1,816 bases of DNA from Escherichia coli (GTDB lineage Bacteria > Pseudomonadota > Gammaproteobacteria > Enterobacterales > Enterobacteriaceae): the NCBI RefSeq assembly GCF_003334815.1, contig NZ_QOWO01000092.1. One strand, written 5' to 3'. The notes beneath the pieces were generated by a model, which saw only the letters and a list, made by a program, of their open reading frames with translations, was not told where the DNA came from and made no database searches. This document shows positions 1 to 1,816 of the stretch, piece by piece (the stretch's first letter is position 1; each line of letters opens with the position of its first letter). The translations under genes and the position numbers were made by a program.

Positions 1-140
1 TATGGTCTGGCAGGGCTGGGGATGGGTAAGGTGAAATCTATCAATCCGTACCGGCTTACGCCGGGCTTCGGCGGTTTCACACCTGTGCTACATGTAACCA
101 CCGTATGCCGCCTTACATGCGCTGACGCGCATTATTTGCC

Positions 141-169
141 TTGTTCCGTCTGAAAGTAATCACTATGAT
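141..169 (+). promoter_or_regulatory. Putative sigma70 promoter of the TA operon: -35 TTGTTC (141-146), 17-bp spacer, -10 TATGAT (164-169)
   Basis: Hexamers read directly from the sequence. The -10 matches TATAAT at 5 of 6 positions, the -35 matches TTGACA at 4 of 6, and the spacing is 17 bp. It sits 27 bp upstream of the antitoxin start. Not experimentally supported; an alternative -35 (TTGCCT, 136-141) is also possible. Confidence 0.3.
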
Positions 170-182
170 TAAATATGATTAA
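164..182 (+). repeat. Tandem direct repeat TATGATTAA-a-TATGATTAA (candidate RHH antitoxin operator)
   Basis: Two exact 9-bp copies at 164-172 and 174-182, offset by 10 bp (one helical turn). The first copy coincides with the predicted -10. RHH antitoxins typically autoregulate by binding direct or inverted repeats that overlap their own promoter. The repeat is seen directly; the operator role is inferred. Confidence 0.5.
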
Positions 183-195
183 CAACTAATCGGAT

Positions 196-480
196 ATGCA
201 AATGAAAAACAATACCGCACAGGCAACAAAAGTAATTACCGCGCATGTGCCATTACCTATGGCTGATAAAGTCGACCAGATGGCCGCCAGGCTGGAACGC
301 TCCCGGGGCTGGGTTATCAAACAGGCGCTTTCTGCATGGCTTGCCCAGGAGGAGGAGCGTAATCGCCTGACGCTGGAAGCCCTGGACGATGTGACATCCG
401 GACAGGTTATCGACCATCAGGCTGTACAGGCCTGGGCGGACAGCCTCAGTACTGACAATCCGTTACCGGTGCCACGCTGA
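196..480 (+). CDS. parD: Type II antitoxin, ribbon-helix-helix (CopG/ParD-like) family
   Basis: 94-aa ORF starting ATG 196 (alternative in-frame ATG at 202). The N-terminus has an RHH-like layout: a short beta-strand (KVITAHVPLPM), then helices with a G-x turn (ADKVDQMAARLERSRGWVIKQALSAWL), resembling the IKQ(Y)AL motif region of RK2 ParD as recalled. The TGA stop (478-480) overlaps the ATG of the downstream ParE-like toxin at 480-482, the classic antitoxin-first coupled TA arrangement. Size and acidic C-terminal tail fit a toxin-binding domain. The symbol is a family-level assignment, not an ortholog call. The Shine-Dalgarno is weak, so the start codon is uncertain. Confidence 0.75.
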   Translation: MQMKNNTAQATKVITAHVPLPMADKVDQMAARLERSRGWVIKQALSAWLAQEEERNRLTLEALDDVTSGQVIDHQAVQAWADSLSTDNPLPVPR

Positions 481-755
481 TGGAACTGAAGTGGACCAGT
501 AAGGCGCTTTCTGATTTGGCGCGGTTATATGATTTTCTGGTGCTGGCCAGTAAACCTGCTGCCGCCAGAACGGTACAGTCCCTGACACAGGCACCGGTCA
601 TTCTGTTAACTCATCCACGTATGGGAGAACAGTTGTTTCAGTTTGAACCCAGGGAGGTCAGACGGATTTTTGCTGGCGAGTACGAAATCCGTTACGAACT
701 TAATGACCAGACTATTTATGTATTGCGCCTGTGGCACACACGAGAAAACAGGTAG
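480..755 (+). CDS. parE: Type II toxin, RelE/ParE superfamily (ParE-like)
   Basis: 91-aa ORF. The C-terminal segment (QTIYVLRLWHTRENR) fits the ParE-type hydrophobic-x-hydrophobic-R-hydrophobic-x-H-x-R pattern, and the size (~90 aa) is typical. The start ATG shares one nucleotide with the antitoxin stop (TGATG at 478-482), implying translational coupling. GC content matches the upstream antitoxin. The symbol is a family-level assignment. Confidence 0.8.
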   Translation: MELKWTSKALSDLARLYDFLVLASKPAAARTVQSLTQAPVILLTHPRMGEQLFQFEPREVRRIFAGEYEIRYELNDQTIYVLRLWHTRENR

Positions 756-783
756 ATTGTGTGTGGGGACAACTTAACATAGC

Positions 784-845
784 CTGCAGATATTAATTCT
801 GGAACATTATTATCACGCCAGATATTTTGCATTCCATTAAATAAT
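784..845 (+). promoter_or_regulatory. Tentative promoter region for the 861..1139 ORF (weak hexamers: TATTAT 808-813, AATAAT 840-845; 8-bp direct repeat CAGATATT at 786-793 and 819-826)
   Basis: The 105-bp gap after the parE stop implies an independent promoter. There are AT-rich -10-like hexamers but no convincing -35, and a CAGATATT direct repeat whose copies are 33 bp apart. Speculative. Confidence 0.15.
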
Positions 846-850
846 CTTGT

Positions 851-855
851 AGGAG
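851..855 (+). promoter_or_regulatory. Shine-Dalgarno sequence (AGGAG) for the 861..1139 ORF
   Basis: AGGAG lies 5 nt upstream of the ATG at 861 and is a perfect core match to the anti-SD complement. Confidence 0.55.
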
Positions 856-860
856 ATAAA

Positions 861-1139
861 ATGAATTACGATGAAATAACGAAAATTACCGCTGAACGTA
901 TTAGCGACTACATGACTGAAGCAGTTAATACAGACTCTATTGCCGTTGCGGAAATGTTTCATAACGCTGCATGGGGAGTGCGAACATTGTGGTTTGAACT
1001 CGTCACAAAAATAGATATGGATATGCATAAAAAGAACGGGTATGCGAGTTATGATCTTAGAAGGAAAATCGAAATGCAGCATGAAGAGTTTCAGAAAATG
1101 ACAGAGCGCGAGCAAGTGCCTTTATTGAAATCGCCATAA
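861..1139 (+). CDS. Hypothetical small protein (92 aa), no family recognised
   Basis: ATG at 861 is preceded by a canonical Shine-Dalgarno AGGAG (851-855) with a 5-nt spacer. The ORF ends in three tandem in-frame stops, TAA TAA TAG (1137-1145). The translation has balanced, mildly acidic composition and looks protein-like, unlike the antisense shadow ORF. It is AT-richer (~44% GC in block 901-1000) than the TA operon. I recognise no homology from memory. Confidence 0.55.
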
Positions 1140-1147
1140 TAATAGAA

Positions 1148-1178
1148 ACAGTACAAGTACATTGCTGTATTGTGTTTT
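1148..1178 (+). terminator. Weak candidate intrinsic terminator downstream of the 861..1139 ORF
   Basis: ACAGTAC (1148-1154) can pair with GTATTGT (1167-1173) as a 7-bp stem with one G-U pair, followed by G then TTTT (1175-1178). The stem is AT-rich and the loop is long (12 nt), so predicted stability is low. Confidence 0.15.
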
Positions 1179-1241
1179 CCTTGAATATTGAATCGCGGTG
1201 CCCATGTACTACGATTCCTTTCGTGTCATTTATCATTGCAC

Positions 1242-1280
1242 ACTTTCCCTGACTGAGCGTAAAACACTGACTACTTTCCC
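1242..1280. repeat. Short rearranged direct repeats: ACTTTCCC (1242-1249 and 1273-1280) and CTGACT (1249-1254 and 1267-1272)
   Basis: Exact 8-bp and 6-bp repeats read directly from the sequence, in the 194-bp convergent intergenic region between the 861..1139 (+) and 1603..1334 (-) ORFs. Function unknown. Confidence 0.3.
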
Positions 1281-1333
1281 CTCAAACTCTTGGACGGAGA
1301 ATGCAAAATTGGTCTGTTCCAGCATAGAATATG

Positions 1334-1603
1334 TTACTTTTTCATGACCGAACCAGAAATATTGCGCGTCAATAAGAGACATTGTGTAAACTCAGTCCTT
1401 TTATCTGGCAGGTTAACCCCTATCAATCTTAGGATGAAACCACGCCATCCTCTGTTTGCCTGGTTATTAATTTCATAAAGACGATTGTTTTCCTCTCGTA
1501 GTTTTGTCCACTCTAAACAAAGTGTTATATCATCCAGTTCTGTGATGTGTTTCACTTTTCCATTGACAGTTACAGTGTTTATTCCATTTCCTGTGATCAT
1601 CAT
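1334..1603 (-). CDS. Hypothetical protein (89 aa), minus strand, coupled to an upstream ORF
   Basis: ORF starting ATGATG (1603..1598), with AAGG 6 nt upstream as a weak Shine-Dalgarno, and stop TAA at 1336..1334. The first ATG overlaps the TGA stop of the upstream minus-strand frame (ATGA, 1603..1600). The N-terminal half (MMITGNGINTVTVNGKVKHITELDDITL...) looks protein-like and the region LREENNRLYEINNQ looks helical. The competing + strand ORF 1290..1478 starts with TTG and looks less protein-like. Very AT-rich, and no family recognised. Confidence 0.4.
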   Translation of the reverse strand: MMITGNGINTVTVNGKVKHITELDDITLCLEWTKLREENNRLYEINNQANRGWRGFILRLIGVNLPDKRTEFTQCLLLTRNISGSVMKK

Positions 1604-1816
1604 CTTATGCCTTTTTTATCTTCATTTGGGACCGTGCTTTTCTTCGGAGTATCACTATTCGTTAACTGCTGTTTATCAATAAAATTCCTGATGTTATCAA
1701 GTGCTTCCTTTGTTTTTAGAATGTTATACAGAAATACAAGTATACAATCAGGAGAATAGGTAAAATCCATAATACTATAGCTAAAAAAATATATACGGGG
1801 ATCAGGCGTCTGTATG
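1600..1816 (-). CDS. 3' portion of a minus-strand ORF that extends beyond the window; alternatively a 56-aa ORF from ATG 1770
   Basis: The minus-strand frame is open for 72 codons from the window edge (1816) to TGA at 1602..1600. That is unlikely by chance in ~30% GC DNA (order 0.5% under a simple composition model I estimated by hand). The C-terminal sequence (…ILKTKEALDNIRNFIDKQQLTNSDTPKKSTVPNEDKKGIR) looks protein-like. The in-window ATG at 1770 has no Shine-Dalgarno, so the true start is probably upstream of the window. Confidence 0.3.
   Translation of the reverse strand, partial: IQTPDPRIYFFSYSIMDFTYSPDCILVFLYNILKTKEALDNIRNFIDKQQLTNSDTPKKSTVPNEDKKGIR

Follow-up and report, generated by a model that had tools for sequence, protein, structure and literature searches.

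Gene pair and upstream region

The window analysed here, a stretch of 1,816 nucleotides from Escherichia coli (contig NZ_QOWO01000092.1), carries on its plus strand two small genes, an antitoxin gene (196-480) followed by a toxin gene (480-755), which together with the operator/promoter region in front of them make up a conserved toxin-antitoxin (TA) module at 158-755. All 1816 bases of the window are 100% identical to many E. coli IncI1 plasmids. We read the module as a plasmid-maintenance type II TA operon of an IncI1 plasmid, with a toxin most likely directed against DNA gyrase, and consider this reading as a whole probable. The pair is an ordinary one of a well-known kind, and thousands of records carry its correct annotation; RefSeq names the antitoxin a 'CopG family ribbon-helix-helix protein' (WP_001178089.1) and the toxin a 'type II toxin-antitoxin system RelE/ParE family toxin' (WP_001582571.1). 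In NZ_CP024481.1 one side of the pair is taken up by repA and its downstream origin region, and the other by two small hypothetical genes, a gene of the ProQ/FinO family, yagA and the colicin Ia gene. As the rest of this record holds nikAB, trbABC, tra/pil genes and a Hok/Gef (pnd-type) toxin gene, it represents a typical IncI1 backbone.

The sequence-only reading had described an antitoxin-first pair with products of less than 100 amino acids and with stop and start codons sharing one nucleotide, and this description holds in full. The antitoxin open reading frame (ORF) encodes 94 residues from ATG 196, or 92 if translation starts at ATG 202, and the toxin ORF encodes 91 residues, also from an ATG. 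The antitoxin TGA (478-480) and the toxin ATG (480-482) have base 480 in common and form a TGATG junction at 478-482 on the plus strand, contained in the letters GCTGATGGAA at 476-485. The start of the antitoxin is ambiguous, since the sole GGA lies 3 nt 5' of ATG 196 and 9 nt 5' of ATG 202 and the N-termini of the homologues are variable. Judged from the sequence, the TGATG overlap implies that translation of the toxin is coupled to that of the antitoxin; the toxin gene has no Shine-Dalgarno sequence of its own, which is consistent with such coupling. The position of the pair at a boundary with AT-rich DNA was likewise evident, as the GC content is 0.56 in the antitoxin gene and 0.49 in the toxin gene and drops to 0.33-0.39 across 756-1331.

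Upstream of the antitoxin gene, the operon is preceded by a terminator-like hairpin (117-132), after which comes a promoter-like site at 150-179 (plus strand), with a -35 element CTGAAA at 150, an 18-nt spacer and a -10 element TATGAT at 174-179. It is the sole sigma-70-like match 5' of the antitoxin and is a match to the consensus only. A candidate operator at 159-181 on the same strand consists of the half-sites AATCA (159-163) and TGATT (167-171), separated by CTA, and a second TGATT (177-181) after the spacer AAATA. The tandem repeat TATGATTAA occurs at 164-172 and 174-182 with a spacing of 10 bp and overlaps the -10 element, and this is the only spot of the window with three half-sites inside 40 nt. 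The motif is conserved beyond the IncI1 plasmids: the 15-mer AATCACTATGATTAA is common to the window and to the upstream regions of three Aeromonas loci (L015-L017), the core AATCA-N3-TGATT is also found 5' of the L018 pair (toxin identity 63%), and the AATCA/TGATT half-sites are kept in IncF plasmids, Aeromonas and one metagenomic locus. By analogy with CopA_SO of Shewanella oneidensis, which binds inverted repeats in its own promoter, it is plausible that these repeats are the putative operator through which the antitoxin would act on its promoter. Scans of the window for tRNA/tmRNA genes and Rfam families were empty, so that no integration-site or RNA-antitoxin component belongs to the module.

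Family assignment of the toxin and the antitoxin

Pfam searches bore out the families that had been proposed for both products. Residues 14-51 of the antitoxin fit RHH_1 (PF01402) end to end (2e-10), in line with the ribbon-helix-helix (RHH) layout described for its N-terminus, and toxin residues 3-90 cover positions 1-88 of the 89 positions of the ParE_toxin model (PF05016, 3.8e-17), which places the toxin within the RelE/ParE superfamily. As PF05016 also takes in RelE, this match alone is not discriminating and the branch was tested directly. Both the breadth of the Pfam family and the RefSeq name, which commits itself only to RelE/ParE, would leave room for a RelE-like ribosome-dependent mRNA endonuclease.

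We compared a toxin family profile, built from 53 diverse full-length homologues (35-71% identical), with the PDB. The significant matches were all ParE structures (7etr_C, 6x0a, 5ceg, 6xrw, 5cw7 and 8c24), ranging from 2e-11 for 7etr_C down to 8e-6 for 8c24, while the best-scoring RelE structure reached E=1.4; the PDB matches include no RK2 ParE structure. In the AlphaFold (AF2) model of the toxin (predicted local distance difference test, pLDDT, 96.9) a short strand is followed by a long alpha-hairpin made of helices 7-21 and 25-43, then by a sheet of three strands and a tail of five residues beyond the last strand, without a C-terminal catalytic helix. In a Foldseek search with this model the top 22 chains were all of the ParE type, with template modelling (TM) scores of 0.75-0.87; RelE, YoeB, HigB and YafQ are present lower in the list (TM 0.45-0.70).

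The active site points in the same direction. The RelE residues K52, K54, R61 and R81 (E. coli sequence, verified against 4v7k) align to V60, R62, E69 and E89 of the toxin, so that both arginines are replaced by acidic residues, and RelE Y87 falls past the toxin C-terminus, in an alignment of low hhalign probability (6%). Residues conserved in at least 90% of the toxin family include D12, R15, R61, Y68, H86, E89 and R91, and W5 and Y72 are invariant. The conserved basic and histidine residues near the C-terminus could be claimed for an endonuclease as well. The conserved set includes the ParE hallmarks, namely the helix-1 residue D12 and, at the C-terminus, H86-x-x-E89-x-R91, and this conservation agrees with a review according to which the helix-1 Asp is absolutely conserved among ParE toxins and their toxicity depends on the C-terminus. 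On profile, fold and active-site comparison the toxin clearly belongs to the ParE branch and not to RelE, and we regard a RelE-like endonuclease as improbable. The sequence-only reading had held that a gyrase poison and an mRNase could not be told apart from sequence; for the branch this proved too cautious, as the three comparisons favour the non-RNase ParE type, while for the molecular target it stands, and the target discussed below is one that we infer.

By sequence, we assign the antitoxin to the CopG/CopA_SO-like type of RHH proteins, its nearest matches being CopA_SO and P. aeruginosa ParD1, with a predicted N-terminal RHH DNA-binding domain at residues ~13-51 and a predicted C-terminal helical toxin-binding region at ~52-94. 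A profile made from the true genomic partners of the toxin family matched full-length CopA_SO best (7etr_A, 3.6e-11, profile positions 5-85), followed by the CopA_SO DNA-binding domain alone (6iya), P. aeruginosa ParD1 (6xrw_B, 2.6e-7) and PutA-type RHH domains; the C-terminal part of the profile lines up with the portions of CopA_SO and P. aeruginosa ParD1 that bind the toxin. The AF2 model of the antitoxin has helices at 20-33, 37-67 and 74-83. Its top Foldseek match is the P. aeruginosa ParDE1 complex 6XRW, at a target-normalised TM of 0.79 and a root-mean-square deviation of 2.0 Å, with weak E-values throughout the search (at least 0.06), as expected of a small elongated monomer, and the placement of the antitoxin rests for this reason on the sequence profile. 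NCBIfam yielded only sub-threshold BrnA and PutA RHH matches for the antitoxin and no family match for the toxin, the PADLOC scan gave nothing, and PHROGs returned the unnamed families phrog_25976 and phrog_2455 together with a weak match to a CopG-like repressor and nothing else. Toxin and antitoxin thus point to the same solved complexes (7etr and 6xrw), as expected of a cognate pair.

The best solved match for both proteins is ParE_SO/CopA_SO (SO_1444/SO_1445; 7ETR, 6IYA) of the S. oneidensis prophage CP4So (PMC8706911), likewise with a CopG-type RHH antitoxin encoded first and a ParE-fold toxin second. There, CopA_SO binds the inverted repeats mentioned above, its C-terminus folds onto the toxin, and the system stabilises a mobile element (PMC8706911). 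In contrast to the window pair, ParE_SO/CopA_SO resides in a prophage and not on a conjugative plasmid and has another operator sequence; the proteins share only ~20-25% identity, and according to our reading of the alignments CopA_SO Glu86 and ParE_SO Arg18, which are reported to be functionally important there, are not conserved in the window pair. P. aeruginosa ParDE1 is also the top Foldseek match of the toxin (E 7e-7, TM 0.78) and resembles the window pair in its CopG-type RHH antitoxin and in a ParE toxin with a short C-terminus, whereas it is chromosomal and ~23% identical.

Spread of the pair and two cassettes at the IncI1 locus

The two-gene arrangement was retained in 7/7 distant loci examined, with toxins 40-80% identical to the one of the window. 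In P. aeruginosa, Ralstonia and Aeromonas, toxins of 77-80% identity each have a gene of 89-93 codons with RHH_1/RelB3_C domains upstream, and the TGATG junction is kept; antitoxins in these loci are 73-82% identical, with a DNA identity of only 69-74%. In the remaining four loci (toxins 40-63% identical) a small gene overlaps or abuts the toxin start, with RHH_1/RelB3_C in 3/4. Two ORFs on one strand that each cover a cognate TA family from end to end, and that are found together again in all the distant loci, are far beyond chance. The toxin family as such maintains 77-85% amino acid identity across Enterobacterales, Aeromonas, Pseudomonas, Ralstonia and Shewanella, and is thus strongly conserved across Gamma- and Betaproteobacteria.

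DNA homology to a Tn3-linked Aeromonas locus (L015) covers exactly window 158-746 at 74% identity, and the limits of the module were defined on this basis. Several of the distant loci, among them loci with toxins of 77-80% identity, adjoin Tn3-family transposase or resolvase genes, and this frequent tnpA/tnpR adjacency suggests that the toxin family spread as a transposon passenger. Compared by layout, the Aeromonas loci L015 and L017 (<tnpR A> T>) resemble the ParE-ParD systems of the Tn5501 group (PMC7157771), from which the window differs in having no adjacent resolvase or transposase. The module is 95-97% identical in IncF plasmids, and a larger block, from window position 1 to ~1100-1150 and including an ORF at 861-1139, moves between IncI1 and IncF contexts in E. 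coli plasmids. In pAPEC-O1-ColBM, an IncF plasmid, the pair and a serine recombinase gene are transcribed divergently, and the fragment between the two is 97% identical to window 1-129; because this fragment adjoins the pair there, part of the replicon flank appears to have travelled along with the pair.

In about 1000 plasmids (IncF, Klebsiella and Shigella) all that is left is a copy of the toxin gene that is 5'-truncated, frameshifted and devoid of an antitoxin. One such orphan remnant, unannotated and near parM/stbB, lies in pEC36-2 (L005 4001-4238) and is 92.7% identical to window 516-755. Inactivation of orphan copies is the expected outcome if the intact toxin is harmful. The frequency of these degraded copies could also be taken to mean that the pair of the window itself is a decaying, non-functional remnant, the more so as its neighbours are damaged, with a 223-bp deletion at 1724/1725 and an ORF (861) designated a pseudogene by the Prokaryotic Genome Annotation Pipeline (PGAP). 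We consider such decay very improbable, since both ORFs are intact, cover the Pfam models in full length and are 100% identical in many independent plasmids. Furthermore, all family-invariant residues are retained, and the ratio pN/pS between E. coli alleles is below 1 (0.1-0.4, from few substitutions).

The position of the pair recalls ParDE-I of the IncI1 plasmid pJIE512b, described by Kamruzzaman and Iredell, which stabilises plasmids (PMC6614396). Its toxin ParE-I causes growth arrest, filamentation and induction of recA/lexA, from which the antitoxin rescues the cells (PMC6614396). Identity with this system, known as YacA/YacB in IncI1/IncF plasmids, was assumed at first and would mean that the function of the window pair has already been demonstrated. 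Both pairs directly follow the IncI1 replicon and agree in gene order, gene sizes and one-base overlap, the published upstream primer, located in the replicon flank, fits window 68-87 at 16/20 positions, and the toxins are homologous at the profile level (hhalign probability 96.6%, E 5e-10, for the toxin family profile against YacB, which is ParE-I). Nevertheless, neither the coding-region primers nor the promoter sequence of that study match anywhere in the window, and a megablast search with the 50-nt primer flank gave no matches. The promoter sequence of its Fig. S4 instead retrieved yacA of ColIb-P9 in blastn, and a direct comparison with ColIb-P9 yacAB ruled the identity out. The window toxin is 24% identical to YacB, the antitoxin has no BLAST match to YacA (hhalign probability 0.6%), neither window protein matches the YacA or YacB names of NCBIfam, no YacA/B was found on the complete 105-kb plasmid that carries the window, and the ColIb-P9 region examined has no window-type pair. 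We consequently attach practically no probability to the two pairs being the same. As a side observation, Table S1 of PMC6614396 counts pAPEC-O1-ColBM as ParDE-I-positive; the locus that we examined in this plasmid has the window-type pair at 98.6% identity.

The alignment with ColIb-P9 defines the exchange precisely. Window 1-129 is 87% identical to ColIb-P9 2197-2326 and window 1332-1816 is 99% identical to ColIb-P9 4895-5602, and between the junctions 129/130 and 1331/1332 the ~1.2 kb of window 130-1331 stand in place of a ColIb-P9 block of ~2.6 kb that contains yacA-yacB, a 3'-5' exonuclease gene and one further hypothetical ORF. ParDE-I differs from the window pair in its cassette as well as in its proteins. 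Both arrangements are common: among the plasmids of PLSDB the window-type pair occurs in 1,448 and yacAB in 1,734, and among complete E. coli genomes the window-type arrangement is present in 246 and the uninterrupted ColIb-P9 arrangement in 162. An earlier paper from the group that described ParDE-I found a relE-RHH system in only 72/125 IncI1 plasmids (PMC5330492).

The pair belongs to the routine stability genes of IncI1/IncF resistance and virulence plasmids, which annotation pipelines recognise. The only thing here that is not trivial is that one or other of two common ParE-family cassettes, whose antitoxins have no detectable similarity, occupies the replicon-proximal locus of IncI1 plasmids, and this bears on the transfer of ParDE-I results and on antitoxin-based curing strategies. 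What was found for ParDE-I/YacAB (SOS induction, antibiotic and heat tolerance, curing) is not automatically transferable to plasmids like the present one, which carry a pair about as common as YacAB itself. Going further, we tentatively suggest, at somewhat less than even confidence, that the locus is a swap site occupied by one of the two cassettes, YacAB or window-type, with antitoxins that have become too different to be recognised as related, so that neither would neutralise the toxin of the other cassette. If this is true, otherwise incompatible IncI1 plasmids could kill cells that exchange one plasmid for the other, a form of TA-mediated plasmid competition, and curing constructs based on the ParD-I antitoxin would fail on the large share of IncI1 plasmids with the window-type pair.

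Predicted mode of action and neighbouring genes

We are highly confident that the pair is a functional ParE/RHH TA system, and this functional reading is supported by the homology of the toxin family to the tested ParE-I (YacB). Located immediately downstream of the replicon, it would serve as a post-segregational killing module. Reasoning from homologues, the RHH antitoxin dimer would bind the AATCA/TGATT repeats over its own -10 element and repress the operon, its C-terminal helices would wrap round the toxin and neutralise it, and the toxin would be translated by coupling through TGATG. Upon plasmid loss the labile antitoxin would be degraded and the toxin set free. The freed toxin would then most likely trap DNA gyrase in a cleavage complex, which would lead to double-strand breaks, SOS induction, filamentation and growth arrest. 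By analogy with homologous toxins, we take DNA gyrase to be the target with a confidence moderately above even.

Several points weigh against this course of events. On the regulatory side, the promoter match is weak (9/12 positions), matches of this kind are no more numerous across the window than in shuffled sequences, and the operator motif is absent 5' of the Pseudomonas and Ralstonia copies. As to function, we found no experiment on the exact pair in the literature, including searches with the RefSeq accessions and with peptide strings. The relE-RHH system of pJIE512b, a neighbouring allele, failed to prevent plasmid loss in the mouse gut (PMC5330492), and the strength of addiction may accordingly be modest. 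As to the target, gyrase was only hypothesised by the authors for ParE_SO, whose target is unvalidated, and the introduction of the same paper relates that E. coli O157 ParE2 failed to inhibit gyrase and that M. tuberculosis ParE2 showed only a weak interaction with GyrB (PMC8706911). PrpT (7ycs) and PfiT (9w3a), ParE-fold toxins of a less certain target, are among the fold matches of the toxin, and the review regards the ParE toxin mechanism as a major gap.

These observations on the target, together with the five residues left past the last strand, are what speaks for a ParE-fold toxin that is attenuated or acts on something other than gyrase, or for a pair that serves mainly as a regulator, as has been described for some toxins with the ParE fold. 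P. aeruginosa ParE1 reportedly inhibits gyrase but with attenuated toxicity, and its shortened C-terminus has been linked to the attenuation (review). Against such a toxin, the strong conservation of D12 and of the C-terminal H86, E89 and R91 points to an activity that has been kept up; ParE-I, a distant homologue, triggers the SOS response and filamentation in E. coli, and orphan toxin copies are inactivated. Weighing both sides, we judge a toxin without gyrase action, or an attenuated one, to be unlikely, though clearly the foremost competitor of the gyrase-targeting reading.

The surroundings of the module gave some further observations. Window 1-129 is replicon-associated, and some records annotate it as the end of 'RepA4'. 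A 15-nt inverted repeat (14/15 complementary, 123-137 and 1357-1371) is found near both cassette junctions. It was considered as a recombination site and is treated as probably coincidental, with a rough chance-occurrence estimate of ~0.07. Its left arm is part of the 117-132 hairpin, which ColIb-P9 retains with compensatory changes, and its right arm falls within a conserved ORF of 89 codons and is present in ColIb-P9 too.

The ORF at 861-1139 (plus strand, 92 amino acids) has a strong Shine-Dalgarno sequence, AGGAG, and represents a conserved hypothetical family of ~93 amino acids confined to enterobacterial plasmids. It had no match in NCBIfam, PHROG or PADLOC, and the homologues listed carry essentially no precomputed Pfam domain. 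PGAP treats it as a C-terminally truncated pseudogene in IncI1 records, and in IncF plasmids near parM/stbB it accompanies the TA pair.

A second gene pair with a one-base overlap lies on the minus strand, a gene for 164 amino acids followed by one for 89 amino acids (window 1334-1603 and 1600-1770; L001 2877-3143 and 3143-3637). It is conserved in ColIb-P9 and belongs to no Pfam, NCBIfam, PHROG or PADLOC family. Compared with most IncI1 records, the 223-bp deletion at window 1724/1725, with a junction lacking microhomology, shortens the hypothetical 164-residue gene (L001 3143-3637). The same deletion is present in NZ_JBSQGZ010000003.1, where the affected gene is annotated as frameshifted.

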